Source of the DNA: Clostridia bacterium
GTDB taxonomy: Bacteria; Bacillota; Clostridia; Christensenellales; CAG-138
Assembly: GCA_017394835.1 (NCBI GenBank)
Contig: JAFPXD010000007.1
Location: 171,591-235,590, forward strand
Direction: 5' to 3'
DNA length: 64,000 nt
The notes under the pieces are model-generated. The model searched no databases. It worked only from the letters and a program-made list of their open reading frames with translations, and was not told where the DNA came from. Shown one piece after another: positions 27,563-55,494 of the stretch. Every line of letters starts with the position of its first letter. Within the stretch, counting starts at the first letter, position 1. The translations under genes and the position numbers were made by a program.

Positions 27563-27563
27563 A

Positions 27564-28283: not shown

Positions 28284-28342
28284 GCGATCAGCGCTGGTTT
28301 TTATAAGCCAAAGCCCATCTATATGTCATTAAGGAGAAAACG

Positions 28343-31204: not shown

Positions 31205-31585
31205 ATGACCGTGGATTATAAAAGGCTTTGCGAAAGCGATCAGAAGCTGATGAACCTCATTTGGGACAACGAGCCCATACCTTCGGGCGAGCTTGCAAGG
31301 CTCTGCCTCGATGAGTTCGGCTGGAAGAAATCGACCTCCTATACGATCCTCCGCAAGCTTATCGACAAGGGGCTTGCCAAAAACGAGGACGGCATGGTCT
31401 CCGCCGCCGCAAAGCGCGAGGAAGTCATGGGGCTTGAGAGCGCCGTGTTCGTGGAGCGGTCCTTCGGCGGTTCGCTGCCCGGGTTCCTCGTTTCGTTCCT
31501 CGGCGGCAGGCGCATCAGCAAAAAGGAGGCGGACGAGCTTCGCCGCCTGATCGACGAGTATGAGGAGGACGGTGACGAAGAGTGA
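31205..31585 (+). CDS. BlaI/MecI/CopY-family transcriptional repressor
   Basis: The winged-helix N-terminus is LMNLIWDNEPIPSGELARLC..WKKSTSYTILRKLIDKGLA. 126 aa. The stop overlaps the next start (GTGA). Confidence 0.85.
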   Translation: MTVDYKRLCESDQKLMNLIWDNEPIPSGELARLCLDEFGWKKSTSYTILRKLIDKGLAKNEDGMVSAAAKREEVMGLESAVFVERSFGGSLPGFLVSFLGGRRISKKEADELRRLIDEYEEDGDEE

Positions 31586-33576
31586 GCGCGCTTTTCCAAA
31601 CGGTGCTGAGGATGAGCCTCTTGGGAGCGGCGACGGTCGTGTTCGTGCTGCTCGTTCGGCTATTGCTCAGGCGCGCACCGAAGAAATGGTCATATCTCGC
31701 GTGGCTGCCCGTGCTGTTCCGGCTCGTCTGCCCCGTCGGTCCCAGGGCGGCGTTCAGCCTGTTCGGGCTGTTCACGCGCAAAACGACCGCGCCTGGCGAC
31801 GGTTGGACGGTATTCCGAGCCGCCGAATTATTCAATGCTTTCGAAGCCGTGCCGCAGACCTCCGTTCCGGCGGAGACCGCCGCGCCGTATGAAGCCGTGC
31901 CCGCCCAGCCCGCATTCGATTGGATGAAGCTGATCGCGTTCTTCTGGCTTATCGGGATGCTTGCGCTCGCCGTGATCTCCGCCGTCAAAACGGTCGAGCT
32001 TATAAAAAAACTGCGCGGAGCCCGAATGACGGGCGGCGTTTACGAATCGGCAAAGGTCGTTTCGCCCTTCGTTTTCGGCATTTTCCGCCCGCGTGTGTAT
32101 CTGCCCGCCAGTCTCGACGCGGAGACAAAGGGCATTATCATCGCCCATGAAAACAGTCATATCAGGAGGGGCGACCATATAGTAAAGCTCATTGCGTTCG
32201 CCGTGCTCTCGGTGCATTGGTTCGATCCGTTCGTCTGGCTCGCGTTCCTGCTGATGACGCGCGATATGGAGATGAGCTGCGACGAAAGCATCATCGCCCG
32301 GGATCCGAAGCTCAAGAAGCAGTACGGAAAAGCGCTTTTGAGGTTTGCCGAAACGCGGGAGAGCGGCTTCCCCTCCCCCTGCCCGGTATCGTTCGGCGAA
32401 ACGTGCGTTAAGGCCCGCATTAAAAACGTGCTGGGCTATAGGAAACCGAAAAAGCTCGTTTGCGTCATCGCCGTGCTGCTTATAATAGCCGCAGCGACCG
32501 TCTGCATCACCGATCCGGCCGTCAAGGCCGCCGCCGGTCCGGAGGATACGCCGCAGGTCCTGCCGACTCAATTGCCGGTTCCGGCTGCGACCTCATTCCC
32601 GGAGCCGACCGTATCGCCGGAGCCCGGGGAGCCGGCTGCCGCATTTGCGGATCCGCTCGTTGAAAAGGCGGTGCTGGCGCAGCTCGGGCGCGAAAGCGGT
32701 CCCGTGTATGGATCCGAGCTTTTGAGGATATCCGGGCTTGCGCTCTGTGAAGGCCGGTTCGATGATCTGTCCGACCTTGACAAGCTGCCGAATCTGTTTT
32801 CCTTATTCTTGGTCGAAGCGGAGATATCGGACACAGCCTCCCTCGCCCGGCTTTCAAATCTCAGGCACCTTGTAGCATGGGACTGCAGTTTTTCCGATAT
32901 ATCGTTCCTTGCGAGAACGACGAAGCTGACCGTGCTCCGGCTGGTCCACTGCGGCCTGACGGACGTCTCCCCGCTTGCCGGGCTAAGCGCTCTTGATGTG
33001 CTCGATCTCACCGGCAATCGGATAACGGATCTATCACCGCTTATGGGGCTCGGCGGTCTTGCACAGCTTACGATATCGTGGAACCCGTTCCCGATCGGGC
33101 AGGCGGAAGCGCTCGACGCCGCACTTGGATGCACCGTTCGGCACTCATCCGCCGCTGATGAAAACGCGATGCTTTGGCCGCTCGATATCGACGGCGACGG
33201 CAAGGATGAATACGCGGCGATCGACCGGAAAGAGCTCGCCGCGGGCAGCACTTGCGCGGTGCTGCTTGACGACGACATGAGCTATATCGCAAGCCTTTCG
33301 TCTGTCGGCGTCACACAAAACGGCGAGCGCGTGTGCATTGCCGCAGTGCATGACGAGCCCTTCGGAGACTGCATACTCATCTGCTTCATGGACAGGGAGA
33401 ACGCGCTCCCGACCTATAATCTGCTGCATGTCAGCGGCGGAATGCTCTGCTCCGTCGAGCATCAAAGCGGCGAAACGGACCGCGACCGCCTGCTGGCACT
33501 GTATAGAAAGAGTTCGATCATAGTCTGTACGGATGAACGGATAAGCGAAAGCTTATCTTCGTCTGCGAACGACTGA
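31582..33576 (+). CDS. BlaR1-type M56 peptidase signal transducer with C-terminal leucine-rich-repeat domain
   Basis: It has N-terminal TM helices, the M56 HExxH block IIAHENSHIRRGDH and a Pro-rich linker. These are followed by about 6 LRRs (LSNLRHLVAWDCSFSDISFL..LTVLRLVHCGLTDVSPLAGLSALDVLDLTGNRITDLSPL). Confidence 0.8.
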   Translation: MSALFQTVLRMSLLGAATVVFVLLVRLLLRRAPKKWSYLAWLPVLFRLVCPVGPRAAFSLFGLFTRKTTAPGDGWTVFRAAELFNAFEAVPQTSVPAETAAPYEAVPAQPAFDWMKLIAFFWLIGMLALAVISAVKTVELIKKLRGARMTGGVYESAKVVSPFVFGIFRPRVYLPASLDAETKGIIIAHENSHIRRGDHIVKLIAFAVLSVHWFDPFVWLAFLLMTRDMEMSCDESIIARDPKLKKQYGKALLRFAETRESGFPSPCPVSFGETCVKARIKNVLGYRKPKKLVCVIAVLLIIAAATVCITDPAVKAAAGPEDTPQVLPTQLPVPAATSFPEPTVSPEPGEPAAAFADPLVEKAVLAQLGRESGPVYGSELLRISGLALCEGRFDDLSDLDKLPNLFSLFLVEAEISDTASLARLSNLRHLVAWDCSFSDISFLARTTKLTVLRLVHCGLTDVSPLAGLSALDVLDLTGNRITDLSPLMGLGGLAQLTISWNPFPIGQAEALDAALGCTVRHSSAADENAMLWPLDIDGDGKDEYAAIDRKELAAGSTCAVLLDDDMSYIASLSSVGVTQNGERVCIAAVHDEPFGDCILICFMDRENALPTYNLLHVSGGMLCSVEHQSGETDRDRLLALYRKSSIIVCTDERISESLSSSAND

Positions 33577-38770: not shown

Positions 38771-38907
38771 AGTAGCCGAAGACAAAAACCACCACCAGCT
38801 GGCACTGGCGGTGGTATAGGGTAAAATCAGTAGTTTACCCTGCGCTCCTTCAAGCATTCTTATCATAGCATATCTGCTGCGCTTTGTCAATTTCTACTGG
38901 AGAAAGG

Positions 38908-39180
38908 ATGCAAAAAAGCATGGCGTTTTCAAGCAGCGTAATAGCTGCAGCTTGGCAGCGTTCCGGCGGCAGATGTGAATGTTGCCGTACTACTTGCGGA
39001 CATGGTTCCCGACGTTGCAACAAAGTCTTGAACTGGTATGCACGCGGTAACGATTATGCATCGGGCGGTTGGGAAGCACACCACAAAACCGCAGTAGCTT
39101 CTGGTGGAAGCGACACACTCTCTAATTGCGAGATTCTGTGTATCGCCTGTCACAAGAACACACGTACATACGGACGGTAA
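38908..39180 (+). CDS. HNH endonuclease-domain protein (90 aa)
   Basis: GGAGAAAGG precedes ATG 38908. The HNH core is GGWEAHHKTAVASGGSDTLSNCEILCIACHKNT, with additional CxC/CxxC Cys residues. Confidence 0.75.
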   Translation: MQKSMAFSSSVIAAAWQRSGGRCECCRTTCGHGSRRCNKVLNWYARGNDYASGGWEAHHKTAVASGGSDTLSNCEILCIACHKNTRTYGR

Positions 39181-39234
39181 TCACCGGTTGGCGGGCAGCG
39201 CAAACCTGCCCGCCAATATCCAGGAGGTTGAATC

Positions 39235-40362
39235 ATGTTTGATCCGAAACAACCATATAACGAACTGCCGCTGATTTCAACACTCGAAATCGACGTTTCT
39301 ACTGGTCTTGGAAAGCTTGCAGAGGATACTAGGGTTGCAGTCGAGATTCTGAATTACGCAGTTAAAACATTGCCTGATCATAACATCCTTTTGGATACAC
39401 TCGCGCTCCAAGAAGCACGGGCCAGCAGTAATATCGAAAACATAGTAACAACAAATGATGATCTGTATCGGGGCGTCGTCTTTGAAGACTTTACGGCGGA
39501 GGCAAAAGAAGTCAGCTGCTATAAAGATGCTTTGTTTGCCGGTTATACCCGGATGCTGGATAAAGGCCTAATCTCAACCAGTGATATCGAAGCAATCAAT
39601 GCGCCGGTGAATCATAAACAACCTGGGATCCGGACGAACCTTCCGAATTTCAATGACCTTACCAGGATAGAGAATCGCAAATCTAATGGAGAGAGTGAGA
39701 TAATCTACACGCCGCCGCATGGCATTGATCTCCTTCACAGATTGCTAATTGATATGTTGGACTTCGTTTATGATGATGACACATACTCTCTTCATCCACT
39801 GATAAAAATAGCTTTAGCCCACTATCAATTTGAAAGCATCCACCCGTTCCGGGATGGAAATGGCAGAACTGGGCGTATTTTGAATATCCTCTTCCTTTGT
39901 CAAAAAGGTTATCTGGATTCGCCAATCCTATATGCCAGTTCTTACATTATCAGAAATAAAAATCTCTATTACGATCTTTTGCGAGTATCCAAGGAAACGG
40001 AAAAATACGAGCCCATCGTAGAATTTATGCTTCGCTCGTTCAAGGAAACCGCCGAAGAGACATTGAGAATTGTCGAAAGCATACGGGCGCTGATCACGCA
40101 GTATTCGGACAAGGAATACCTCTCGACGCTAAAAGGTCAGATCGAACCGCTGCAAAACACGGTCGAGGCAATCTTCAAAAAGGTCTATGTCCGGGTTGCG
40201 GATCTTGTGGAACTGGGCATCCACCGGCAGACAGCCGCAACTTATCTTGACCAGTTCGTTGACCAGGGCCTACTGAGCAAAGAGCGTGTTGGCCGGGATA
40301 ACATCTATAAAAACATCAAACTGCTTGAGCTGTTTGATTACGATAGTGAGGAAACGAAATGA
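39235..40362 (+). CDS. Fic-family protein (AMPylase-type, class II auto-inhibited)
   Basis: The canonical active site is HPFRDGNGRTGR. The N-terminal inhibitory motif SSNIEN matches (S/T)xxxE(G/N). There is a C-terminal winged-helix-like tail. The stop overlaps the hsdM start (ATGA). Confidence 0.9.
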   Translation: MFDPKQPYNELPLISTLEIDVSTGLGKLAEDTRVAVEILNYAVKTLPDHNILLDTLALQEARASSNIENIVTTNDDLYRGVVFEDFTAEAKEVSCYKDALFAGYTRMLDKGLISTSDIEAINAPVNHKQPGIRTNLPNFNDLTRIENRKSNGESEIIYTPPHGIDLLHRLLIDMLDFVYDDDTYSLHPLIKIALAHYQFESIHPFRDGNGRTGRILNILFLCQKGYLDSPILYASSYIIRNKNLYYDLLRVSKETEKYEPIVEFMLRSFKETAEETLRIVESIRALITQYSDKEYLSTLKGQIEPLQNTVEAIFKKVYVRVADLVELGIHRQTAATYLDQFVDQGLLSKERVGRDNIYKNIKLLELFDYDSEETK

Positions 40363-42098
40363 ATAACACTGCTCTGACTGCTGACGTAACCAGCAAAGTC
40401 AATCTTGTAAAAAGCATTGCAAACAAGACTCGCGGGCCGTACACTCCGGAGAAGTACGGCAGCGTCATCATCCCCATGGCGATCATCCGCCGGTTTGACT
40501 GCATCCTGGCCGAGAAAAACGCCGACATCGAAAAGATCCTGCAGGCCGCCTCCAAGGTCAAAGGTATGACGCCTGATAAACTGGAGGAAATGGTCAAGCG
40601 TTCCTGCGGCGTGCCGTTCTATAACGCAAAGTGCGTCTCTCTGGAACAGCTGGTTGGAGACAGCGACAACCTCAATTCCAATTTCCTGGAATTTATCGCC
40701 GCATACTCACCCAGCATTCAAAGGATCCTGCAGAGTCTGAAATTCCGCGAGGAAGTGGAGTTCATGATTAAGAAGGGCATCTTGTTCGAGGTTGTAAAGG
40801 CCTTCTCGGAAGTTGACTTCCACCCCTCCACCACAAGCCCCATGGCTATGGGTTATATCTTCGAAGAGATCATCCGCACCTATAAGGCCAATGCCGAGGC
40901 CGGTGATCATTACACCCCCCGTGAGGTCATCGAACTTTGCATTGATCTGATGCTCAGCGAGAACGTGGACAGTCTGAAAAAAGAGGGCAAGATCATTCGC
41001 ATCTATGACGGATGCTGCGGTACCGGCGGCATGTTGACTACAGCTAAGCGCATGCTTACCGATCCGGAGGAGGGCTTCAATATCCGTGCCGATAACATTC
41101 GCCTTTACGGTCAGGACAACAACCCGGAGGCGTACGCGGTCTGCCAGGCGGAAATGCTGATGCTGGGCGACGATCCCGCCTATATTCGTGAGGGCAACAC
41201 CCTTACAGAGGACCAGTTTCCGGGAGAGAAATTTGACCTGCTGATCACCAATCCTCCTTTCGGCGTAGAGTGGAAAACGGAAAAGAGCACGGTGGAAAAA
41301 GAGCTCAAGCAGCCCAACAACCGCTTTGTGGCTGGGACACCCCGCGTCAGCGACGGGCAGCTTCTTTTCCTGCAGAATCTGTTAGCCAAAGCCGAGGATG
41401 ACGCCCGCGTGGCCATTATCTTGAATGGTTCTCCGCTGTTTTCAGGCGATGCCGGCAGCGGGGAGAGCGAGATACGCCGCTATGTACTGGAGAACCATCT
41501 GCTTGAAGCAATCGTTGCGCTTCCGGACCAAATGTTTTATAACACAGGCATCTATACCTATATCTGGATTCTGTCCAAAACGCCCAATCGCAAGCGTAAT
41601 AAGCAGATCCAGCTCATCGATGCAACCAAGGAGTTCATTCCTCAGCTTCCGAAATCGCTAGGCAATAAACGCAAATTCATCGACGAAGCAAATCGAAAGT
41701 CAATTGTCGCGGAATACCGCGCCGCACAGCAGTCAGAGATCAGCAAGTTCTTTGACGCGAACGACTTTGGCTATACCAAGGTGACGATGGAATGTCCGCT
41801 GTATGACGAGAAGGGCAACAAAGTCATCAAGCGGGGTGTAGTGCAGGTGGATCCCAAGCGGCGTGATACAGAGATCATCCCGCTCAAGCGGGACATCGAT
41901 GCATATATCAAGGCGGAGGTCCTGCCCTATGTACCCGACGCTTTCCCCGACCGCAGCAAGGACAAGATCGGCTATGAAATTCCCTTCACCCGGTATTTCT
42001 ACAAATATACGCCGCCTCGCAAGAGTGAGGACATCCTCAAAGAGATCATCGCCAACGAAGAAGAGCTGCAGCAGACCCTGAAGGTGGTGCTCAGCTAA
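40359..42098 (+). CDS. hsdM: Type I R-M DNA methyltransferase subunit (locus 2)
   Basis: Motif I is YDGCCGTGGML and motif IV is ITNPPFGVEW. 579 aa. Confidence 0.9.
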   Translation: MNNTALTADVTSKVNLVKSIANKTRGPYTPEKYGSVIIPMAIIRRFDCILAEKNADIEKILQAASKVKGMTPDKLEEMVKRSCGVPFYNAKCVSLEQLVGDSDNLNSNFLEFIAAYSPSIQRILQSLKFREEVEFMIKKGILFEVVKAFSEVDFHPSTTSPMAMGYIFEEIIRTYKANAEAGDHYTPREVIELCIDLMLSENVDSLKKEGKIIRIYDGCCGTGGMLTTAKRMLTDPEEGFNIRADNIRLYGQDNNPEAYAVCQAEMLMLGDDPAYIREGNTLTEDQFPGEKFDLLITNPPFGVEWKTEKSTVEKELKQPNNRFVAGTPRVSDGQLLFLQNLLAKAEDDARVAIILNGSPLFSGDAGSGESEIRRYVLENHLLEAIVALPDQMFYNTGIYTYIWILSKTPNRKRNKQIQLIDATKEFIPQLPKSLGNKRKFIDEANRKSIVAEYRAAQQSEISKFFDANDFGYTKVTMECPLYDEKGNKVIKRGVVQVDPKRRDTEIIPLKRDIDAYIKAEVLPYVPDAFPDRSKDKIGYEIPFTRYFYKYTPPRKSEDILKEIIANEEELQQTLKVVLS

Positions 42099-42126
42099 CA
42101 TTAGGCTAAGACAAAAGGAGATACAG

Positions 42127-42903
42127 ATGTCATTAATCATTACGATCCATGTTGAAGAAGGCATCGTTATGGCTAGCGATAGCCGAACGACTTTCAATAC
42201 ACAAGATTTTAGCCCGCTTCCTGATGGAAAAGGTGCAATTATTACTAAGTACCAAGGTGTTCATTATTCAGATACGACATATAAGACTTTTTTAGCTCCG
42301 AACAGCACAGGCATTTCAACATGCGGAGCCGCTGCTATCAACGGGAAGCCGTTGACAGGGTATGTTGAAAAGTTCATACATAACTCTATTCAAAAAGACA
42401 CTGATATCTGTGATGTTCCCGCGCTCCTTCTTGCACATTTTAGAAGCTATGTTCCGATTCCTGATATTGTCTTTCAAGTGGCGGGCTATTCAAAAACTGG
42501 AACCACATCTGTGCAGAAAGTGTATAGAGTTTTTGTAATGGCCAACCGCATTGACGAACTTGATACTTCCTCCCAGGGTGCGGCATGGAACGGTGAGACC
42601 GAAATCCTGTCAAGGATCATCAATTCATTGTGGACGCAGAAAAAAGGAAAAGATCAAAAAACGGGTGAAGAAATCGTCCTGTATGACGAATTAAAGGCTC
42701 CCCCTATACCTTGGAATTTCTTTTCTCTCCAGGATGGAATTGATTTTGCTACATACGCCATTAATACGACTATAGAAACCATGCGATTCCAAGAACGGCT
42801 AAAAACTGTTGGTGGTCCCATTGATATTCTGATTATCAAGCCAGATGGTGCATTTTGGGCCTCCCATAAAACCCTCCACGTGCGAGGAAAGGGGAAACGA
42901 TAA
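42127..42903 (+). CDS. Proteasome-beta/HslV-like Ntn-hydrolase-fold protein with Ser at position 2, embedded in R-M locus 2
   Basis: MSLIITIHVEEGIVMASDSRTT aligns with the mature TTIVGVxxxxGVVLAADxRxT, which puts Ser1/Asp17/Arg19 at canonical positions. Later blocks follow in order: YKTFLAPNSTGISTCGAAA, IVFQVAGYSK, AAWNGETE and KTVGGPIDILIIKPDG. Confidence 0.55.
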   Translation: MSLIITIHVEEGIVMASDSRTTFNTQDFSPLPDGKGAIITKYQGVHYSDTTYKTFLAPNSTGISTCGAAAINGKPLTGYVEKFIHNSIQKDTDICDVPALLLAHFRSYVPIPDIVFQVAGYSKTGTTSVQKVYRVFVMANRIDELDTSSQGAAWNGETEILSRIINSLWTQKKGKDQKTGEEIVLYDELKAPPIPWNFFSLQDGIDFATYAINTTIETMRFQERLKTVGGPIDILIIKPDGAFWASHKTLHVRGKGKR

Positions 42904-42905
42904 CT

Positions 42906-44198
42906 ATGCGAGCCATGAAAGACAGTGGGATCGAATGGATCGGTGCAATTCCGCAAAACTGGGAGCTGCGAAAAATCAAGACCAACTTTGACATAATTGC
43001 CGGAGCAACGCCGAAAAGCGGTGAGGCAAGTTTTTGGGATGGCGATATTCCTTGGATCACCCCTGCCGACTATACGACCGAAGGTGTATATGTCTCTGCC
43101 GGTCATAAAAGCATTACGCAGGATGGCTTGAACTCCTGCGCAACAAGTCTCATTCCGGAAGGTAGCATCATTTTTTCCAAACGTGCTCCCGTGGGGCTTG
43201 TGGCCATTAACAGCAACTCTCTCTGCACCAATCAAGGTTGCCTATCCTGCGTCCCGAAAGATTCGGTTGATGCGAAATACTATTATTATGTCATGAGCAT
43301 TTATGGCGAACAGTTTGATCTGTTTGCCTCGGGAACCACATTTAAGGAGATTTCGGCAGACGCTTTTGCAAACTTCAAACTTCCATATCCGGATTATGAG
43401 ACGCAGAAGCGGATCACGTCATTCCTCGACACTAAATGTGCCGAGATTGATGCGCTGATTGCCGCAAAGGAAAAGACCAACGCGCTGCTGAAAGAGCGGC
43501 GGCAGAGCATCATCTATGAGGCGGTCACCAAAGGCCTTGATCCCACCGTGCCCATGAAGGATAGCGGCGTTGAATGGATCGGAGAGATCCCAGAGGGTTG
43601 GAAAATTACAGCATTAAAAAGGTTGGGAACACCGGCAACCGGTTCCACACCGTCAAAAGATAATGCCGATTATTGGGACGGCGATATTCCCTGGGTGTCT
43701 TCTAAGGATATAAAATCGGATTATCTCCTTGATTCCGAGGATCATATTACGCAAACCGCTGTTGATGAGTGCGGGCTTACGCTGTTCTCTTCTGGGGCTT
43801 TAATCTTTTGCGTTCGCTCCGGTATCCTTCGTCATACATTCCCGGTTGCTGTAGCAACAATCCCGGTTACGATCAATCAGGATCTCAGATCGCTTAGTAT
43901 GACCGGTGATGTCAATCCAGCCTTCGTGCTCTACTACATGAGGGGAATGAACGATATCATTGTAAGGCTCTATCAAAAAATAGGCGCAACAGTCGAGAGC
44001 ATCGAGATGGATTGGTTCCTATATTTCCCTGTAGTGTTGCCGACGCGTGAAGAACAGGATCGTATTGTTGAAGCGCTTGATTCAAGATGCACATCACTGG
44101 ATCACACAGTAATGCAGAATGAGGCTACCATTAGGCAACTGAAAGAATACCGACAAAGCCTGATCTACGAGGCGATTACCGGAAAAATAGAGGTGTAA
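42906..44198 (+). CDS. hsdS: Type I R-M specificity subunit (locus 2)
   Basis: The two TRDs each open with MKDSG(I/V)EWIG.IP..W. The conserved helices are LKERRQSIIYEAVTKGL and LKEYRQSLIYEAITGKI. Confidence 0.9.
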   Translation: MRAMKDSGIEWIGAIPQNWELRKIKTNFDIIAGATPKSGEASFWDGDIPWITPADYTTEGVYVSAGHKSITQDGLNSCATSLIPEGSIIFSKRAPVGLVAINSNSLCTNQGCLSCVPKDSVDAKYYYYVMSIYGEQFDLFASGTTFKEISADAFANFKLPYPDYETQKRITSFLDTKCAEIDALIAAKEKTNALLKERRQSIIYEAVTKGLDPTVPMKDSGVEWIGEIPEGWKITALKRLGTPATGSTPSKDNADYWDGDIPWVSSKDIKSDYLLDSEDHITQTAVDECGLTLFSSGALIFCVRSGILRHTFPVAVATIPVTINQDLRSLSMTGDVNPAFVLYYMRGMNDIIVRLYQKIGATVESIEMDWFLYFPVVLPTREEQDRIVEALDSRCTSLDHTVMQNEATIRQLKEYRQSLIYEAITGKIEV

Positions 44199-44199
44199 A

Positions 44200-45018
44200 A
44201 TGTTTAACGTGTACTATATCAATTATGCAAAAGCGTTTGAAATCACAATGCAAATGGATAATAAGATACTCGAACAGACTATAAAGGAAAGAGGCTGGGA
44301 TGTTTCTGCTAATGCACATGGAGAATTTGATGTAAAACAGTCCTTTCTAAACGCATTGTTTCCTAAGCTTTCTGCTTCATCCGATCTAAAAGGATCGAAA
44401 TCCAGCAAGACAACGGACACCATAAAAGTGGTTTCTACAAAATCCACCGTTCTATCTCCGATAGTAAAGAAGGCAACCGAGGTCAAGAAAATTGACGATA
44501 ACAAGATCGGGAATCTGATAAAAATCAAAAATGTTCAGTTAACAGTTCATAACGGGAATGACATGATGGCAGTAAAAGCACTCTTGAGCGGCTTTCTTGA
44601 TCAAATACCTGTCGAAGGACTTGGGCAGAAAGATCTTACAGGCCTTGCGGATGCATTTTTTAAAGGTGCATCATACATACTAACGGGGAAAATGCCCGAG
44701 AAAGTAAATACTGGTAAAAAAGGGGATCAGATTATTCTAAAGATCCCGATTCAGCTTGAGAATGAGATGGAATCTCAGTACAGTATTGCCGACATAGAGA
44801 TAGGTCCGGTTACAGTCATTGGTATCTATCGCGGGAAGCATAACGCCGGAGAAGTAAGAGCAAGAATGGACATGCTATCTGCATATAACGAACGTAAAAG
44901 TACAATCGAAATTGAGACGGCAGATGATGCAACCAATCCAGACAGAAAGGGCTTTGATGCAAAAGCAGAGATGCACTACATTGATGTAATTGCAGTTATT
45001 CAGGAATTGAATGTGTGA
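44200..45018 (+). CDS. Hypothetical 272-aa protein, DolA-like by position (partner of ClpB-like ATPase)
   Basis: It starts 1 nt after the hsdS stop. I recognise no catalytic motif. The assignment rests on the gene pair matching the published Dodola gene content (DUF6414 + ClpB-like), which I cannot verify without an HMM search. Confidence 0.4.
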   Translation: MFNVYYINYAKAFEITMQMDNKILEQTIKERGWDVSANAHGEFDVKQSFLNALFPKLSASSDLKGSKSSKTTDTIKVVSTKSTVLSPIVKKATEVKKIDDNKIGNLIKIKNVQLTVHNGNDMMAVKALLSGFLDQIPVEGLGQKDLTGLADAFFKGASYILTGKMPEKVNTGKKGDQIILKIPIQLENEMESQYSIADIEIGPVTVIGIYRGKHNAGEVRARMDMLSAYNERKSTIEIETADDATNPDRKGFDAKAEMHYIDVIAVIQELNV

Positions 45019-45028
45019 GGGTAAGTAT

Positions 45029-46216
45029 ATGGCAGGACTAACGCTATACACATACGATCGAAAAAACTGGGATGCTATCTCAGATACAATTAAGCTTGAA
45101 AACATAAAAGTGTTGACAGCACAGGAGATGAGCTATGTTGCTGTAATCAGAAACACCCCCAAGAAGGATGGAGAAGAAATTAAGATTCATCCGTTTAAAC
45201 ACGAGTATTATGATATTTCGTTGTTAATTTCAGGAGATAATGAAAGAGTCGATGTATGGAGTGGACATCTGATAACAGCTCTTCAACTTGCTGAAGAAGA
45301 TCACAACAAAAACAGGAAATTTATTGTTGACAAGAAATATGCAAGTGATATTCTCAGTGCTTTGTTTTATTTCTTTAGCGACAGTGCGCCATTGGAGAAG
45401 TTTCTAAAGCTGGATGACACGACAGTCACCAATATTGTGGATTGTGCGGACGAGACTATCGTTGGGCTGGGAATTTATCTCCAAGCCAATCTGTTCGGCA
45501 ATCCTAAATTCAAAACCAGATTGATACAAGAGCTAAAGCGATTTCGCTTGTTTAACAAGCTTGGAGAAAGAAAAGTCTTTTCAGCGTTTGTATGCGGGCC
45601 AAGCGGCATTGGCAAAACATTAACAGCAAAGCTGTTGCATGATTTCCTTGCGCCGAATGAAAGATACATCAAGATTAATCTTGGAAATTACAGCGATCAT
45701 AATGCGTTAAGCAGTCTTATAGGAAGTCCACGAGGATATGTTGGAAGCAGTAAAGGGGAACTGTCAAGCAAGATAGCAGAGAGCAAGTCCACTGTTATTC
45801 TGATTGATGAATTTGAGAAAGCAAGTCAGGAGGTGCATAATTTCTTTCTCGAGTTGCTTGCAGATGGTAAGTTTACAGATTCTCAGGGTAGAGAATATGA
45901 TTTGAATAAGTACATCATCATCTTTACTTCTAATATTGATGAAAACGAATTCAACAGAAAGATCCCTCCGGAGCTGCGATCTCGCTTTGACTTGGTTTAT
46001 AAAATGGTTCTGCTATCGAAAGAAGAAAAAACAGCTTATATTCAGTATAAAACCAACTATTATGTAGAACAAGCCAAAGAGATGATGGGTATTTCTCTTG
46101 AGTCGGACAGCATTATCGCCAATATGGGAAGCAAAGTAATGAGCTTGGATAATATCAGGTTTATTACAAGAGAGATTGAGCAGTATATAGCTGCTGCTGT
46201 AGAAGAAAAACAATAA
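45029..46216 (+). CDS. ClpB-D2-like AAA+ ATPase (DolB-like)
   Basis: It has Walker A VCGPSGIGKTLTAKLL, the Clp-type IGSPRGYVGSSKGELS, Walker B VILIDEFEKA, GKFTDSQGREYDLNKYIIIFTSN (sensor 1) and PPELRSRFD. An alternative start is at 45011. The about 180-aa N-terminal region is unassigned. Confidence 0.75.
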   Translation: MAGLTLYTYDRKNWDAISDTIKLENIKVLTAQEMSYVAVIRNTPKKDGEEIKIHPFKHEYYDISLLISGDNERVDVWSGHLITALQLAEEDHNKNRKFIVDKKYASDILSALFYFFSDSAPLEKFLKLDDTTVTNIVDCADETIVGLGIYLQANLFGNPKFKTRLIQELKRFRLFNKLGERKVFSAFVCGPSGIGKTLTAKLLHDFLAPNERYIKINLGNYSDHNALSSLIGSPRGYVGSSKGELSSKIAESKSTVILIDEFEKASQEVHNFFLELLADGKFTDSQGREYDLNKYIIIFTSNIDENEFNRKIPPELRSRFDLVYKMVLLSKEEKTAYIQYKTNYYVEQAKEMMGISLESDSIIANMGSKVMSLDNIRFITREIEQYIAAAVEEKQ

Positions 46217-46266
46217 TTCCCCACCGCCGAGGGTGCCAGACCTCGGAGAGAAAAGGAGGAATCAAT

Positions 46267-49215
46267 ATGGCAGAATCGGATCTTCGGGAAAACCCCTTCC
46301 GGGACGAGATCTATGATTACTTTCTCGCCCATGGCTATGTAGCCGGTCAGAAGGCAGACTATGACTATAAGCACGCTCTGGACGTCAGCAAGCTGTTTGC
46401 GTTCCTGGAAGCGACCCAGTCCAAAGAGCTTGCCAGGTTAAAGGAAACATACGGTTCCCGTTATCAGGAACGGTATGTGGAGCTGCTGTGCCAAAAAATC
46501 GAAAACCGCGGACTGCTGACTGCCCTTAATGAATGGGTTGAGGATTACGCAAGCGGGACGAAATTCAGCCTTGCCTTTTTCAAGTCAGGGCTGAGTGCAA
46601 TGTCCGAAGGACTTGAGCTTTATAAGAAAAACGTGTTCTCGATCCGAAAGGAGTTCAGCTTTGAGGACAAGGCCGATCCCTACCGGGTAGACCTTGCGAT
46701 GTTCTTGAACGGCATTCCCATTGTGATGATCGAGCTGAAAAAGCAGACAGCCGGGCAAAAGGCAGTCTTTGAGGGAACAAAGCAATTCCGGACGACGCGC
46801 AATCCGGACGAACTGATATTCTCCTTTAACCGCCGCACGCTGGCATACTTCACTTTGGATGAGTTTGCGGCATTTCTGACCACACGGCTGGACCGAAAGG
46901 AAACCAAGTTCCTGCCTTTCAACCGTGGATCAGACGATGAAGGTGCAGGCAATCCCGTTGTTCCGGGCAAGCACAGCACCTGCTATGTTTGGGAAGATAT
47001 CCTTCAGCGGGATATGCTGCTGCGCATCATTCGGGAGTTCATGTTTATCGACGATGAGGGGGCCATGATTTTCCCTCGCTTTCACCAACTTCGGGCAGTC
47101 CTGCGCTGTGAACAGGATGTGCAGAAAAACGGAGTCGGCGGACGCTACCTTATCTGGCACAGCGCCGGCAGCGGCAAGACGAAGACCATCGCTTGGCTGG
47201 CGAAGCGGATGATCAACCATCCGGAAATCAACACGGTCATCGTTATCAGCGACCGCACGGTCATTGACGGACAGTTAGGCGCTGAGCTGATGAACGTTGA
47301 TGGAAAAAAAGGCGTGGCGCAGCATATCGATACGACCTCTAAGGATCTGCTGAAAAAGCTGAATGACGGCGGCTATATTATCGTAACAACGCTGCAGAAA
47401 TTCAGACCGATCCTGAGTGAAATCAAACAGCACGAGGATCGCAATTACGCCATTATTATTGATGAAGCTCATTCCTCTACCGCAGGCAAGTCCATGTCCA
47501 AGGCGTCTGAAACCCTGACCGGCAAGTCTTTAAAGGAGGCGGTCGAACTGGATGATATATATGAAGATCTGGAAGATGGGCAGAATCAGCTGATTCGGGA
47601 CGGAGCGGCCATTCGCAGCACTCGCAACGTCAGCTACTTTGCCTTTACCGCTACGCCTAAGAAGGAGACCATGGAGCTCTTCGGTACGCGCACGGAAATA
47701 GGTAAGACGTATTTTGACAAATATTCCATGAAGCAGGCAATCGAGGAACGCTTTATTCTCAACCCGTTGCTCTGTTATACTTCGTATCGGGACTTCTATC
47801 GCGTTGAAAAGAAGAAGGAAGATGATAACGAATATGACAGTGCAAAAGCGCAGGCGGCGATCCTTAATTATGTGACGTCCTCTGATGAAGTGATCCAAAC
47901 GAAAACGGAGATCATGTTGAGCGATTTCATCGAGCGTCGCCAGACCTGGCTTGAGGGAAGATCGAAAGCCATGATTATTACGCCTTCCCGCAAACATGCC
48001 GTATGCTATAAATTAGCCATAGATGAGTATCTGAAAAAGCGTGGCTGTGGGTTCCGCTCTTGTGTTGCCTTTACCGGCACGATCGAGCTTGACGGCATCA
48101 AGTTCACTGAAGAGCAGATGAATAAGGATTATCTTGAACACGGTGTACCTTATGATATCAAATCGATCATTCATAAAAACGACGACTGCAGGATTATAAT
48201 CGTCGCCGACAAGCTGCAGACGGGCTTTGACGAAGATGCTCTTTGTGTCATGTATATTGACAAAAAGCTGAACAGCAGCGTAAAGGCTGTTCAGACAATA
48301 TCGCGTTTGAATCGTACAGCTCGCAACAAGCGCACCTTCGTAATGGATTTTATAAACGATCCTGATATGATCCGGGCTTTCTTTACACAGTATTACGGCG
48401 GTGAACTGTACCTTCCCACCGAGAACGAGACTGATCCGAACATCCTGTTTGCGAAACGGGATCATATTCTGGATTATTGTGTTGTAACGCTTTTAGATGC
48501 ACAGAAGATTTACAGCTTGATTTCTTCCAATGAAGAAAACGGTGGCGAATTGACATCGATGATTGCCAGCATTTCCCGCAATTACCGCGCTCTTGAGCCG
48601 GATCTCAGGAAAGCTTTTGCTCTGGAATTGGATAAATTTGGGAAGCTGTTCTACTATATCTCTGCTGTTTATAATGTATGGAATCGAGATATGGAGCAGT
48701 TGGCGGTTGTCTTTAGTGTCCTGTACAACGTACTTTATGAGAAAGAGGTTACACCTGATATTGATGCCTCCGAACTCGTTGAACTAGTCGAATACTCAAC
48801 CAAGCTGTCCCAGGAAGAATTCACGATTTTTCTATCTGCGGAAGATCAGGCATTTAACGGCATTTCAACGGATGTTACTGCTGCGGATAGAACTATGTCG
48901 GTGATCGATGAGATCATCGAAAAGTTTAATCTTCGCTATGCACACGCAGACGAGGAGATAGGCAATATAATAACTGAGCTTAGCAGTGATAAGGATCTAC
49001 AGTCTAACGTGCAGAATAGTAGTACTAGTGCGTATGAGGCTGCAGTGGCAGAACGCCTCTCGTCTCGTATTATGGATGGCTTATTCGACGGAACAGTTAA
49101 CGGAGAAACGGAGAAGGCAGAATTTTACACTGAATTGAGTGAGAACACCTCAGCACTGATTCAAATCCGCAATTCGATTATTCGAAAGATCAAGGATCTC
49201 TTGCTGGCGAGTTGA
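46267..49215 (+). CDS. hsdR: Type I restriction enzyme R subunit (locus 2)
   Basis: AAGGAGG RBS. It has Walker A WHSAGSGKTKT, the DEAH-type IIIDEAHSS and motif VI QTISRLNR. 982 aa. Confidence 0.9.
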   Translation: MAESDLRENPFRDEIYDYFLAHGYVAGQKADYDYKHALDVSKLFAFLEATQSKELARLKETYGSRYQERYVELLCQKIENRGLLTALNEWVEDYASGTKFSLAFFKSGLSAMSEGLELYKKNVFSIRKEFSFEDKADPYRVDLAMFLNGIPIVMIELKKQTAGQKAVFEGTKQFRTTRNPDELIFSFNRRTLAYFTLDEFAAFLTTRLDRKETKFLPFNRGSDDEGAGNPVVPGKHSTCYVWEDILQRDMLLRIIREFMFIDDEGAMIFPRFHQLRAVLRCEQDVQKNGVGGRYLIWHSAGSGKTKTIAWLAKRMINHPEINTVIVISDRTVIDGQLGAELMNVDGKKGVAQHIDTTSKDLLKKLNDGGYIIVTTLQKFRPILSEIKQHEDRNYAIIIDEAHSSTAGKSMSKASETLTGKSLKEAVELDDIYEDLEDGQNQLIRDGAAIRSTRNVSYFAFTATPKKETMELFGTRTEIGKTYFDKYSMKQAIEERFILNPLLCYTSYRDFYRVEKKKEDDNEYDSAKAQAAILNYVTSSDEVIQTKTEIMLSDFIERRQTWLEGRSKAMIITPSRKHAVCYKLAIDEYLKKRGCGFRSCVAFTGTIELDGIKFTEEQMNKDYLEHGVPYDIKSIIHKNDDCRIIIVADKLQTGFDEDALCVMYIDKKLNSSVKAVQTISRLNRTARNKRTFVMDFINDPDMIRAFFTQYYGGELYLPTENETDPNILFAKRDHILDYCVVTLLDAQKIYSLISSNEENGGELTSMIASISRNYRALEPDLRKAFALELDKFGKLFYYISAVYNVWNRDMEQLAVVFSVLYNVLYEKEVTPDIDASELVELVEYSTKLSQEEFTIFLSAEDQAFNGISTDVTAADRTMSVIDEIIEKFNLRYAHADEEIGNIITELSSDKDLQSNVQNSSTSAYEAAVAERLSSRIMDGLFDGTVNGETEKAEFYTELSENTSALIQIRNSIIRKIKDLLLAS

Positions 49216-49351: not shown

Positions 49352-49405
49352 TTGACAGTGGATAGTGGGGCATGTATAATATGTATGCTAATGAAACATA
49401 TGTTT
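49352..49405 (+). promoter_or_regulatory. Consensus sigma-70 promoter plus Cheo/SOS-box-like palindrome upstream of the LexA-family gene
   Basis: TTGACA at 49352-49357, a 17-nt spacer, then TATAAT at 49375-49380. The perfect palindrome AAACATATGTTT lies at 49394-49405. Its core AACATATGTT equals the centre of the Bacillus-type box CGAACATATGTTCG. Confidence 0.7.
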
Positions 49406-49423
49406 TATTTAATCGGAGGTGGC

Positions 49424-50020
49424 ATGAGAAGCAAGGATAAGACGCTAATGGCCGCAATAGAGCGGTTCGTGTGCGAATACGCGGACAGGCACGGCTACTC
49501 CCCTTCGATGCAGGAGATCGCCGAAGGAGTGGGAAGCTCCAAGCCCACGGTGTATAGGTACATCAGCCAGATGAACCGTGACGGCATACTGGAGTATTCA
49601 GGTGTGAGGAACGTTCACTCCGCAAAGGATAACCCAAGCGCTGCGAGAGTCGGGATACCGGGACGTGTTGCGTGCGGTCTTCCGAGGTTGGCAGAGGAGA
49701 ATATAGAGGAGTACGTTAAGCTTCCTGTATCGTTATTCGGCGAAGGACCCTTCTATCTGCTTACCGCAAGCGGTGATAGTATGATCGAAGCCGGAATCGA
49801 CGACGGAGACTGGGTGCTCGTAAGGCAGCAGGATACCGCCGAACCCGGAAAAATCGTCGTCGCTCTCATTGGGGACGAAGCCACTCTCAAGCGCTACTAC
49901 CCCGAGCCGGAGAATCACCGGATCAGGCTCCACCCGGAGAACCGTACGATGGAGGATATTTACGTCGACTCCTGCGAGATACAGGGTGTCGCGGTAAGTG
50001 TATTCAAGGATCTGACATAA
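49424..50020 (+). CDS. LexA-family repressor (winged-helix + S24 self-cleaving peptidase)
   Basis: GGAGG precedes ATG 49424; the track start at 49352 lies inside the promoter. It has the LexA-type N-domain GYSPSMQEIAEGVGSSKPTVYRYISQMNRDGIL, the cleavage-site-like VACG, the catalytic Ser in SGDSM and the catalytic Lys in EATLKRY. Confidence 0.8.
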   Translation: MRSKDKTLMAAIERFVCEYADRHGYSPSMQEIAEGVGSSKPTVYRYISQMNRDGILEYSGVRNVHSAKDNPSAARVGIPGRVACGLPRLAEENIEEYVKLPVSLFGEGPFYLLTASGDSMIEAGIDDGDWVLVRQQDTAEPGKIVVALIGDEATLKRYYPEPENHRIRLHPENRTMEDIYVDSCEIQGVAVSVFKDLT

Positions 50021-51029: not shown

Positions 51030-52409
51030 ATGAAGCATAATACGATAAGACAAGGAGACAGAACATTGAAATTTCCCGAAGCAACAAAAGATGAAAAACG
51101 AAGCATTCGTTTTACGCGGAACAAGCTCGTAAAGTGCAAGGACGAAAAACCCCTGAGCAGCATATCGAACTTCGTGACGGTCCTTGAAAACGATCCGAGG
51201 CTCGCTGGCGCTATTAGGCTCAATGAGATGAGCGGCAGGATACATATAATCAAACCGCTTGGCTGGAAAAGGGAGGAAAACGGCGCGATCACCGATACCG
51301 ATATAAACTGCATCCGCTTGCTCATAGAGCAGACCTATGGCCTCACAGGAGAAAAACCCGCAATATCGGCTATTGATATAGTCGCTAATGAGAACCGCTA
51401 TCATCCGATACGCGATCTGCTCTTTTCCTTCAAATGGGACGGCAAAGAACGCATACGGTACGTGCTTCATCACTTTCTAGGAGCCGAGGTAAACGATTTC
51501 AATTACGAGTGTATGAAGCTGTTCCTGCTCGGAGGTATAAGCAGGATAATGACGCCCGGTTGCAAGTTCGATTATATGCTCTGCCTGATCGGCGACCAGG
51601 GAGCGGGCAAATCGACCTTCTTTAGGAAGCTCGCCCTGCGCGACGAGTGGTTCACGGATGACATCAAGCGCCTTGATGATGAAAACGTCTATCGCCGACT
51701 GGAGGGGCATTTCATAATCGAAATGCCGGAGATGAGCGCCATAGCCAACACACGCACAATTGAAGAAACCAAGGCGTTCATCTCCCGGGCGAAGGATACA
51801 TACAAGGTCCCGTATGACCGTCTGCCTAAGGACCGTCCCCGCCAGTGCATATTCGGCGGCAGCGGGAACCGTGTGGCATTTCTTCCGCTCGACAGATCGG
51901 GAAACAGAAGGTTCCTTCCGATACTCATCGACATGTCAAAAGCCGAGGTGCATATCCTCGAGGATGAAGCCGAAAGCGAGCGTTACATTGAGCAGGTCTG
52001 GGCGGAAGCGGTCATGCTCTATTGCTTGGGCGAGCCGGTACTTAAGCTCTCCGAGGAGGATCAAAAGGAGCTTACGAAAATCCAACGTTATTTCATGCCC
52101 GAGGACGACCGTCTGGGTGTGATAGCCGGCTTCCTTGCCAAAACGAATGAATCGAGCGTATGCTCCCGTATGCTCTACAAAAAGGCGTTCGGCCGCGATG
52201 ACGAACCCAAGCATTGGGAGCTGCAGGAGATAACCGAGATCATGAACGCAGGTATCGCATCAAAGGAAATAGTCGGCTGGAAGAGATGTGATGACGTCAG
52301 GCACTTCCATGATTACGGCAAGCAGCGCTGCTGGGAGCGAGTTTCCGATAAAGAACCCGAATTCACCGAGATCCAATGTGAATTGCCCGAGGGTCTATTC
52401 GATGATTAA
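51030..52409 (+). CDS. VirE/VapE-family P-loop protein (primase-helicase-associated)
   Basis: It has Walker A LIGDQGAGKSTFF and a Walker-B region FIIEMPEM. The 459-aa architecture matches virulence-associated protein E family members on mobile elements. Confidence 0.75.
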   Translation: MKHNTIRQGDRTLKFPEATKDEKRSIRFTRNKLVKCKDEKPLSSISNFVTVLENDPRLAGAIRLNEMSGRIHIIKPLGWKREENGAITDTDINCIRLLIEQTYGLTGEKPAISAIDIVANENRYHPIRDLLFSFKWDGKERIRYVLHHFLGAEVNDFNYECMKLFLLGGISRIMTPGCKFDYMLCLIGDQGAGKSTFFRKLALRDEWFTDDIKRLDDENVYRRLEGHFIIEMPEMSAIANTRTIEETKAFISRAKDTYKVPYDRLPKDRPRQCIFGGSGNRVAFLPLDRSGNRRFLPILIDMSKAEVHILEDEAESERYIEQVWAEAVMLYCLGEPVLKLSEEDQKELTKIQRYFMPEDDRLGVIAGFLAKTNESSVCSRMLYKKAFGRDDEPKHWELQEITEIMNAGIASKEIVGWKRCDDVRHFHDYGKQRCWERVSDKEPEFTEIQCELPEGLFDD

Positions 52410-52507: not shown

Positions 52508-53401
52508 ATGGCCGTGTTTCCAGTTACCGTTACCGGCGGCACGGCGGAAAGGAATAAAAGATTGAAGGAAATAGGCATTACAGAATTAAAGCCCTTTGAG
52601 GGGCATCCGTATAAGGTCAGGGACGATAATGAAATGGACGCCCTTGTTGACAGCATCCGCGAACATGGGATAATGACTCCGCTTATCGTGCGGCGCGTTA
52701 ATGACGGATATGAGATCATTAGCGGGCACAGGCGCGCTCATGCTGCGGAGCTGGCGGGGCTTGCGACCGTTCCTGTTATTGAAATGGAGTTGAACCGTGA
52801 CGAGGCCGCGGTGATGCTCGTTGACAGCAATCTTCACCGGGAGCATATCCTTCCGAGTGAAAAGGCGTTTGCGTATAAGCTGAAATCGGAAGCCTTGGAG
52901 CATCAGGGCAAAAGCTTAACTTCGGGACAAGTTGTCCCGAAGTCGGACGGGAACAGGACGACGGCGGCTATCGGTGCGCAGACAGGCGAAAGCTACAAGA
53001 CCGTACAGCGCTATATCCGCCTGACGCATCTTCTCCCGGCTCTGCTAGAAATGGTCGATTCTGAGCGTATAGCGTTTTCGGTGGGCGTAGAGCTTTCATT
53101 CCTCGATCCCGAGCTTCAGGCCGCGCTCGTTACATCTATCGGGGTCAACGACTGCACGCCATCATATGCCCAGGCAAACCGTATGCACAAGGCTGCTGTT
53201 GCCGGAGAGCTCGACGAGGAAATGCTTTTTGCCATTATGGAGGAAGAAAAGCCCAACCAGCGGGAGAAAGTCAGCATATCGACCGACGAGCTCCGCCGTT
53301 ATCTTCCCAACGCCACGCCCTCCGAAATGCAGGCGTTCGTCCGTAAGGCTTGCGAACATTATTCCGCTTTCCTCAAAAAGAACCGCGAGGAGGTGCGATA
53401 A
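52508..53401 (+). CDS. ParB/Srx-domain protein
   Basis: The ParB N-terminal box is PLIVRRVNDGYEIISGHRRAHAA, followed by an HTH-like region. Confidence 0.8.
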   Translation: MAVFPVTVTGGTAERNKRLKEIGITELKPFEGHPYKVRDDNEMDALVDSIREHGIMTPLIVRRVNDGYEIISGHRRAHAAELAGLATVPVIEMELNRDEAAVMLVDSNLHREHILPSEKAFAYKLKSEALEHQGKSLTSGQVVPKSDGNRTTAAIGAQTGESYKTVQRYIRLTHLLPALLEMVDSERIAFSVGVELSFLDPELQAALVTSIGVNDCTPSYAQANRMHKAAVAGELDEEMLFAIMEEEKPNQREKVSISTDELRRYLPNATPSEMQAFVRKACEHYSAFLKKNREEVR

Positions 53402-53404
53402 ACA

Positions 53405-55352
<1,948 letters not shown>

Positions 55353-55411: not shown

Positions 55412-55494
55412 TGGTGCGGTCGATGGGACTTGAACCCATACGGTCTCCCATACGCCCCTCAAACGTACGCGTCTGCCTATTCCGCCACGACCGC
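55412..55494 (-). tRNA. tRNA-Leu (anticodon GAG), class II with long variable arm, CCA encoded
   Basis: The hand-folded minus-strand sequence is GCGGTCGTGGCGGAATAGGCAGACGCGTACGTTTGAGGGGCGTATGGGAGACCGTATGGGTTCAAGTCCCATCGACCGCACCA. It has a 7-bp acceptor stem, an anticodon stem TACGT/GCGTA with loop TTGAGGG, a T-arm ATGGG-TTCAAGT-CCCAT and an 11-nt variable arm. Confidence 0.9.

Follow-up and report, generated by a model that had tools for sequence, protein, structure and literature searches.

A proteasome-beta-type Ntn hydrolase candidate carried as interchangeable cargo in Type I restriction-modification operons

The 64,000-nucleotide stretch of contig JAFPXD010000007.1 from a Clostridia bacterium (assembly GCA_017394835.1), referred to here as the window, contains a Type I restriction-modification (R-M) operon with an additional gene, termed X in this work, between hsdM and hsdS. 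Gene X (42127..42903, + strand) is an ATG-initiated open reading frame (ORF) of 258 aa that is assigned to the proteasome-beta-type N-terminal nucleophile (Ntn) hydrolases on the basis of an AlphaFold2 model, Foldseek comparisons and profile matches, and comparison with related operons has revealed that it is carried as cargo. A Shine-Dalgarno sequence AGGAG (42116..42120, + strand), read from the sequence, is located 6 nt ahead of the ATG. A spacer of 28 nt separates X from the hsdM stop (42098) and one of 2 nt from the hsdS start (42906), and the original prediction, a note made from the DNA letters of the window, was borne out in describing a 258-aa ORF that fills the hsdM-hsdS gap with these spacers.

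The operon extends over 38884-49215 in the order HNH-SoFic-hsdM-X-hsdS-PDC-M37A-PDC-M37B-hsdR, with all genes on the + strand, and the sole well-placed terminator-like site of this strand within the operon is found after hsdR. The operon is headed by a small HNH protein (38884..39180; HNH, 3e-4), which is kept in the backbone relatives described below, followed by the Fic-domain protein SoFic (39235..40362; PADLOC SoFic, 1e-88, with Fic_N, Fic and SoFic-like_C) and by the Type I methyltransferase gene hsdM (40359..42098; N6_Mtase, 5e-56, and HsdM_N). Downstream of X are located the specificity subunit gene hsdS (42906..44198; Methylase_S, 9e-40, in two stretches), PDC-M37A (44200..45018; PADLOC PDLC04604, 9e-87), which is separate cargo in the hsdS/hsdR slot, PDC-M37B, encoding a Clp D2-like AAA+ ATPase (45011..46216, with a probable start at 45029; PADLOC PDLC04606, 1.6e-113; AAA_2, 6e-26; DolB, 5e-30), and the restriction subunit gene hsdR (46267..49215; HSDR_N, ResIII, SWI2_SNF2 and T1R_D3-like). 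The identities first proposed for the neighbours of X (hsdM, hsdS and a Clp-type AAA+ ATPase) agree with these Pfam matches.

As a single sequence, X gave no match in Pfam or PADLOC (both at E <= 0.1), in NCBIfam or in the PDB, and a search of PHROGs returned a marginal 38-residue C-terminal match to phrog_5990 (E = 9e-4). The comparison with PF00227 that the original prediction had proposed was therefore negative for X itself, which scores below the PF00227 gathering threshold, and the kinship is visible only through a family profile or through structure. AlphaFold2, run on a 42-sequence alignment, gave a confident model (predicted local distance difference test, pLDDT, 85; predicted template modelling score, pTM, 0.79) with 214 Foldseek matches in the PDB at E <= 1e-3, and the top matches were all 20S proteasome beta subunits and Anbu, with target-normalised template modelling (TM) scores of 0.6-0.7. 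A 121-sequence family profile searched against the PDB gave a match to yeast proteasome beta1 at E = 6e-5, in which residues 4-127 of X are aligned in register to mature residues 3-111 and K53 is placed on Lys33. The profile comparison with hhalign against Thermoplasma acidophilum beta (reference sequence checked as identical to PDB 3c91_H) gave 92.6% probability and E = 4.6e-7 over 176 columns, covering the Lys33 region, the IVFQVAGY strand, the GAAW/GSG position and the terminal helix plus the GGPIDILII strand, which is matched to GGMIDVAVI of proteasome beta.

The register of the profile match and the blocks aligned by hhalign indicate that the N-terminal resemblance to the proteasome is not due to chance, and the model assigns to X a proteasome-beta-type Ntn fold, in keeping with the alpha-beta-beta-alpha sandwich core of strands S1-S11 and helices H1-H4 that defines proteasome-like Ntn hydrolases. 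The Ntn fold, the N-terminal alignment to proteasome beta and the succession of later blocks in fold order, all proposed at the outset, were thus recovered, the top matches of the structural search all being proteasome beta and Anbu. Kinship with HslV was ruled out, as hhalign against E. coli HslV (reference sequence checked against 1e94_A) gave 2.5% probability over 29 columns. The best viral structure match was BFVD A0A8S5LJV3, a 219-aa protein of the metagenomic siphovirus Siphoviridae sp. ct3o911 named "proteasome beta type-2 subunit", which is structurally much closer to X than any solved structure (E = 9e-13, target-normalised TM 0.81, 19% identity).

Conservation of the putative catalytic residues was counted over 265 members of the X family. 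The Ser2 codon (42130..42132, + strand) is equivalent to Thr1 of proteasome beta, and among about 248 members reaching the N-terminus this position is Ser in 224 and Thr in 18, so that Ser or Thr directly follows Met1 in about 98% of the family. The D18-S19-R20 codons (42178..42186, + strand), equivalent to Asp17 and Arg19 and in register with (A)DSR of beta1, are also highly conserved (D18 in 248 and R20 in 245 of about 256). The K53 codon (42283..42285, + strand) falls on Lys33 in both the HMMER and the hhalign alignments and is kept in 248/255, and the G67 codon (42325..42327, + strand), kept in 248/256, was placed on the oxyanion-hole Gly47 by hhalign, where KTFLAPNSTGISTCG stands opposite KLFQIDTYTGMTIAG. 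Each of D18, R20, K53 and G67 is present in about 97% of the family. Nearly all homologues begin at profile position 1, which indicates a family without propeptide. Methionine aminopeptidase prefers a small second residue, and removal of Met1 is expected from this preference. Taken with the model, these residues support X as a propeptide-free Ser1 Ntn hydrolase; the Ser1 nucleophile candidate, the candidate Lys33 region and the conservation of S2, D18 and R20, to which attention had been drawn beforehand, all stood up to this count.

A different fate for the active site has been considered, in which X would be a catalytically dead scaffold or pseudo-enzyme that has kept the fold and lost the hydrolase function. 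It would be compatible with the absence of a PF00227 match and with the loss of the Ser129, Asp166 and Ser169 equivalents, which are not kept at the positions aligned by hhalign, where X has Q150, L225 and V228. T227 (Thr or Ser in 243 members), D233 and Q202-D203 are conserved near those sites and may act as substitutes for the three residues, to judge from the alignment. A dead enzyme is nevertheless highly unlikely, because conservation of the Ser/Thr1, Asp17, Lys33 and Gly47 equivalents stays at 97-98% in members down to about 30% identity with the window X, and this set is the minimal catalytic set of all proteasome-like homologues (PMC8665760).

Two insertions distinguish X from the proteasome core. 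The S3/S4 insertion (about residues 23-50; 42193..42276, + strand) is variable in length and sequence, has a pLDDT of 52-68 over residues 21-50, corresponds to a 20-residue gap against T. acidophilum beta in hhalign and is gappy in the family alignment A1. The H3/H4 insertion is a beta-hairpin (about residues 168-189; 42628..42693, + strand) with model strands E168-175 and E182-189, which sit between helices H159-165 and H201-220 and are unaligned to T. acidophilum beta. The loop between H2 and S6 is short, and helices H76-87 and H94-106 are present in the model. Insertions at these sites have been argued to hinder ring stacking or to form a substrate lid (PMC8665760), and for this reason a classical double-ring self-compartmentalising protease is doubtful for the modelled protein.

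The original prediction had proposed that X works as an HslV-like self-compartmentalising protease driven, as HslV is by HslU, by the Clp-type AAA+ ATPase encoded two genes downstream. The proteasome-beta fold of X, the ClpA/B D2-type AAA_2 domain of the downstream protein and their location in one operon make this model appealing. However, the AAA+ gene is PDC-M37B (1.6e-113), which has its own partner PDC-M37A (9e-87) in the PADLOC candidate system PDC-M37. X relatives with 76-88% identity occur in the same operon as that of the window, and a 74%-identical X (locus L105) is found in the operon SoFic-hsdM-X-hsdS-[PDC-M50A + ThsB-TIR]-hsdR, in which M37A/B have been replaced and X has been retained. 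PDC-M50/ThsB occupies the place of M37A/B in both L105 and L106, and M37A/B occur together with X only in the window-type operon. No AAA+ gene is present in L105 or in the other X-containing hsd operons (L086 and L099 types), and an M37B-like gene was found near X in 1/80 genome loci, at a distance of 8 kb. In addition, the S3/S4 and H3/H4 insertions occur at sites thought to hinder stacking, the hhalign similarity to HslV is negligible, as given above, and the orphan proteasome homologues lack co-occurring AAA+ proteins (PMC8665760).

The HslUV-like model is thus already contradicted by the co-occurrence data and is extremely improbable, and the AAA+ pairing proposed at first, attractive as it was, has to be corrected. 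X is not supported as the partner of PDC-M37B, which was ruled out in this role by co-occurrence and cassette replacement, and X as a third component of PDC-M37 was also discarded, since there is no general co-occurrence with M37A/B. The PDC-M37A/B cassette itself is swappable with PDC-M50/ThsB-TIR, PDC-S08 (5'-nucleotidase) and DUF6119 in sister operons, and its B component also matches DolB of Dodola.

The R-M backbone was surveyed in 80 metagenome loci whose HsdM is 59-98% identical to that of the window, and X was present in none of them. Two loci with 98% HsdM identity end inside hsdM, and in the HsdM relatives of up to 94% identity with hsdS in view, hsdS directly follows hsdM or other cargo is found at this position. 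The backbone is HNH-SoFic-hsdM-[slot 1]-hsdS-[slot 2]-hsdR. Slot 1, the hsdM/hsdS junction, is empty in L108-L110, where hsdS starts 3 nt after hsdM, and in other members it holds PDC-S13 (Bro-N domain, 5e-119), PDC-S20 (KAP NTPase) together with PDC-S32 (AbiJ-like), or a 121-aa membrane protein; in the window it is occupied by X. Slot 2, the hsdS/hsdR junction, holds PDC-M37A/B in the window and PDC-M50/ThsB, PDC-S08 (5'-nucleotidase) or DUF6119 in relatives, and its contents vary independently of X. A two-slot modular Type I R-M backbone is documented in this way, and X is interchangeable cargo in the hsdM/hsdS junction and not part of the restriction enzyme. The absence of X from the 80 loci ruled out a core role for it in this R-M family, and the initial placement of X as a component of the restriction system does not hold for the same close HsdM relatives. 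Most alternative slot occupants are catalogued defence candidates, and X itself is without a PADLOC model (0 families at E <= 0.1). HNH and SoFic precede hsdM in nearly every backbone member, with or without cargo (L108-L149; window 38884-40362), and they look like fixed accessory parts of the R-M lineage and not swappable cargo. SoFic as a partner of X was ruled out, as it occurs in the backbone with or without X.

The genomic contexts of X were surveyed in the best 80 genome loci from species-representative genomes, and neighbouring hsd genes were searched for by tblastn and again with iterative hidden Markov models from three hsd families, with the same outcome. Embedding of one X sub-lineage in Type I R-M operons recurs in at least three architectures: M-X-S (window, L081-85 and L103-106), S-X-M (L086-90, L001, L003, L018, L074 and L076) and S-X-R (L099-102). 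The operon hsdR-PDC-S72-hsdS-X-hsdM adjoins short prokaryotic Argonaute (pAgo) and SIR2 genes, and the operon hsdM-hsdS-X-hsdR stands between CBASS and Kiwa. Within the clade of at least 63% identity, every sampled member is embedded except L002, in which hsdR is about 5 kb from X. The hsdS-X-hsdM unit persists in relatives whose X shares 44-65% identity with that of the window and whose HsdS shares 37-43% with that of L001, and its retention across this divergence suggests selection for linkage. In species-representative genomes the embedded arrangement occurs in 5/80, and in a neighbour-joining tree the embedded copies are spread over at least two or three positions. By chance, adjacency to hsdS would be expected in roughly 0.1 of 80 loci, a figure that is a rough estimate and not a computed statistic.

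Some side observations concern these operons. In L086-L090 (e.g. L086:108-11569) the Fic-like PDC-S72 is located between hsdR and hsdS, and hsdM is followed by a short pAgo (Piwi) and SIR2 pair and by a PDC-M14A-like gene, forming a dense defence island. Because SoFic and PDC-S72 occur in two X operon types, a Fic-domain protein was considered as a partner of X and rejected, with Fic-like genes near X in 1-3/80 loci. In two Firmicute loci (L095:8724-9269 and L010:10724-11269), the X stop is followed after about 10 nt by the start of a YgjP-like (PF01863) metallopeptidase gene. The YgjP-like family is often linked to Type I R-M operons. This gene was also discarded as a partner, being present in just 1/80 genome loci, and its adjacency to X may be a coincidence.

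The intimate association with hsd genes raises the possibility that X serves the R-M system as a dedicated regulator, degrading HsdR (or HsdM/HsdS) and so providing restriction alleviation when the operon enters an unmethylated host, in the manner of ClpXP acting on EcoKI HsdR or of the Lon-like proteases acting on HsdR and HsdMS of P. aeruginosa. Type I enzymes are known to be controlled by proteolysis (PMC4231737; bioRxiv 10.1101/2024.10.21.619520). X has the same orientation as hsdM and hsdS, from which only short gaps separate it, Type I R-M is the sole recurrent defence neighbour of the family, in three hsd architectures, and the operons lie on mobile elements, with an integrase, Mob_Pre and TnpV beside the L081 copy and a serine recombinase and tRNA-Leu beside that of the window. 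However, the closest backbone relatives work without X and carry unrelated cargo in the same junction, and there are no hsd genes near more than 90% of the homologues. X also moves between hsd families whose subunits are about 25% identical, which argues against specific recognition of Hsd subunits. A regulatory role of this kind is consequently considered unlikely.

The X family is large and unannotated, without a Pfam, NCBIfam or PADLOC model. It comprises 1,154 clusters at 90% identity (E <= 1e-3) and 1,921 representatives at 50% identity, no Pfam domain was precomputed on any of the 120 members among those listed, and the source names are all "hypothetical protein". Individual loci show sensor-kinase, metabolic and core-genome contexts, and no neighbour gene is conserved in more than 8/80 genome loci. 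Among 150 immediate neighbours of X, Type I R-M is the top recurring family, yet in just 5 loci, the rest being assorted metabolic genes. The survey of neighbourhoods for hsd genes or ClpB-like ATPases that the original prediction had suggested gave, accordingly, a divided answer: three hsd architectures were found, and around X hsd genes occur in only 5-6/80 genome loci (iterative models, three hsd families) and the M37B-like gene in 1/80.

These contexts give some weight to the view that X is a passenger, namely a specific peptidase or amidase whose function, in housekeeping or in niche metabolism, has nothing to do with defence or R-M, and which was captured by chance in a recombination-prone hsd junction. 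Most homologues do stand in non-defence contexts, some of them in the core genome, no partner gene is conserved, and no informative context has been described for any orphan proteasome homologue (PMC8665760). Against a passenger stand the embedding of X in hsd operons of three architectures, the almost complete embedding of the clade of at least 63% identity (except L002), the catalogued defence candidates among most alternative occupants of the slots, and the hsdS-X-hsdM unit that is kept over 44-65% X identity and 37-43% HsdS identity. Capture as a mere passenger is regarded as a less probable explanation, although one to be taken seriously.

The reading that we favour, with moderate confidence, is that X is a stand-alone, propeptide-free Ser1 hydrolase of the proteasome-beta-type Ntn class which, in the R-M-embedded sub-lineage, would serve as an independent single-gene protease-based anti-phage module. 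According to Payne et al. 2024 (doi 10.1101/2024.01.29.577857), embedded genes often prove to be new defences, and over 50% of them are still without an assignment. By analogy X would fit this pattern of "guilt-by-embedding" and is best read as an uncatalogued defence candidate; since its slot co-occupants are mostly catalogued defence candidates, an anti-phage module is the most likely role for the embedded sub-lineage.

In the mechanism proposed, methionine aminopeptidase would take off Met1, and the free alpha-amine and hydroxyl of Ser1, together with K53 (Lys33), D18 (Asp17) and the oxyanion hole of G67 (Gly47), would form a proteasome-type active site able to cleave, and possibly to transfer, an amide bond in a specific substrate. 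The S3/S4 insertion, at the position of the connectase lid, would partly select this substrate. This insertion and the H3/H4 hairpin suggest a substrate-specific enzyme that would have no classical stacked-ring chamber and would need no AAA+ unfoldase. In the hsd operons, infection would lead X to cut a target of the phage or of the host, in loose analogy to the Lit protease. A bolder proposal, put forward only tentatively, is that the embedded clade represents the first anti-phage effector on the proteasome/Ntn fold, a single-gene, AAA+-independent Ser1 protease or transpeptidase. Such an effector would be triggered by infection or by inhibition of the flanking Type I enzyme, and would cut a specific phage or host protein.

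Several observations weigh against a defence function. R-M and defence neighbours are absent from about 74/80 genome loci, representing more than 90% of homologues, and homologues are found among DegT aminotransferases, asparaginases and GNATs and in the holB-PSP1-rsmI region, from which it follows that the ancestral role of the X family is not defence. Searches of 72,556 plasmid records and 50,697 phage records gave no X homologue, and X has no match to any model of PADLOC-DB v2.0.0. As the neighbour-joining tree is weakly resolved at depth, it gives no firm count of how many times R-M operons captured X independently. At the level of the enzyme, the lack of conserved Ser129, Asp166 and Ser169 equivalents also has to be considered, and the activity, substrate and assembly of X are predictions from sequence and model.

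Orphan proteasome-like proteins have been classified by Fuchs, Alva & Lupas 2021 into 22 subfamilies with a Thr/Ser1-Asp17-Lys33 triad plus Gly47 and no propeptides (PMC8665760). Insertions in these homologues include one between S3 and S4, at the connectase lid site, and one between H3 and H4 that may prevent ring stacking, and they were reported to have "no genomic contexts" and "no co-occurring AAA+ interactors" (PMC8665760). X probably belongs to, or lies near, their group II "PMI" (multiple insertions) homologues, to judge by comparison with the published description. Like PMI proteins, X has the beta core, the triad and Gly47, both insertions and no propeptide, and both are patchily distributed across Firmicutes, Bacteroidetes, the Planctomycetes-Verrucomicrobia-Chlamydiae (PVC) group, Deltaproteobacteria and Euryarchaeota, without AAA+ partner or general context. 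Of the subfamilies described, just the small groups PMI-5 and PMI-6 combine S3/S4 and H3/H4 insertions with a short pore loop as X does, and their taxonomy differs. The NCBI members of the X family have accessions different from those of the published PMI representatives (WP_115649681.1, WP_137109689.1, OGZ26396.1, HDY66466.1, WP_179179973.1 and WP_103790100.1; PMC8665760), and, unlike for X, no R-M or defence association is reported for PMI proteins (PMC8665760).

The 20S proteasome beta subunits (MEROPS T1, PF00227) and Anbu share with X the structure, residues 4-127 in register, the catalytic set and a GGxID strand near the C-terminus. X differs from 20S beta in its Ser nucleophile (about 90% of the family) in place of Thr, in about 50 extra residues in the two insertions, and in lacking a propeptide, a PF00227 match, an alpha subunit and conserved Ser129, Asp166 and Ser169. 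Connectase (MJ0548, PDB 6zvz), a monomeric protein ligase, resembles X in a weak N-terminal profile match (E = 0.0067), the absence of propeptide, the S3/S4 insertion and its stand-alone nature without AAA+. However, connectase lacks helices H1 and H2, which X has (H76-87 and H94-106), and its insertion is formed by two helices, whereas that of X is a low-confidence hairpin or loop. Connectase is also limited to methanogens with MtrA as substrate, and X was not assigned to it. HslV has in common with X the Ntn proteasome-like fold and a nucleophile exposed by removal of the initiator Met; it is compact, without insertions, and adjoins its obligate AAA+ protein HslU, whereas X has no conserved AAA+ neighbour.

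Among genes embedded in Type I R-M operons (PADLOC PDC candidates, PrrC and TgvAB, PMC11411939), X is alike in occupying the same intra-operon slots, and like the embedded PDC candidates it is interchangeable with PDC-S13 and PDC-S20 + PDC-S32 and is co-transcribed with hsd genes on a mobile element. It differs from embedded genes in having no PADLOC model and in its Ntn fold, which is not among the described embedded or named defence proteins in the literature searched, and it differs from PrrC in that most X homologues are not embedded. In this literature, no protein of the proteasome fold was found to be linked to R-M or to any named defence system, in agreement with the remark made in the original prediction, and the recurrent embedding of X in Type I R-M slots beside defence candidates appears undescribed there. 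Since orphan proteasome homologues were known before (PMC8665760), the finding is not new in kind.

Prokaryotic proteasome homologues beyond 20S, HslV, Anbu, BPH and connectase are numerous, with no known function or informative context (PMC8665760), and one X sub-lineage as recurrent interchangeable cargo of Type I slots offers a concrete, testable lead for such an orphan family. If the proposed role is correct, it would provide the first biological function for one orphan prokaryotic proteasome homologue and a new catalytic fold among anti-phage effectors, in an Ntn enzyme that is compact, uses Ser1 and may have a specificity lid. The precedent of connectase shows that enzymes of this type can serve as protein-engineering tools.

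The operon lies in a low-GC island of about 38.4-55.4 kb (GC 0.40-0.52, compared with about 0.6 in the flanks), which is probably an integrated mobile element. Downstream of hsdR this island encodes a LexA-like S24 repressor (49352-50020), a VapE-like protein (51030-52409), a ParB_N protein (52508-53401) and a large serine recombinase (53577-55352), and it is adjoined by tRNA-Leu(gag) (55412-55494). The 88%-identical X copy of L081 instead adjoins a tyrosine integrase, Mob_Pre and TnpV. X of the window clade ends with a basic tail, HVRGKGKR (42880-42900, residues 251-258), with variants HVHGKGKR and HVPGKRKR in the family members P0005 and P0012; the tail is disordered in the model (pLDDT < 50), and most other family members end near KELH, without it.

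A second Type I R-M locus is present in the window, with hsdR (EcoEI_R_C type) at 23611-26361, hsdS at 26372-27562 and hsdM at 28968-30515. Two ORFs lie in its hsdS/hsdM gap, one of about 240 aa with a hydrophobic C-terminal half (27546/27564-28283) and another of 233 aa (28343-29044). Neither has a PADLOC or Pfam match and neither is related to X, so that an X paralogue in this locus (27546-29044) was ruled out. These two ORFs stand in the slot that X occupies in L086-type operons, which makes them further embedded candidates. A BlaR1-type M56 peptidase with fused leucine-rich repeats is encoded at 31582-33576, in high-GC, host-like DNA between the two R-M loci.

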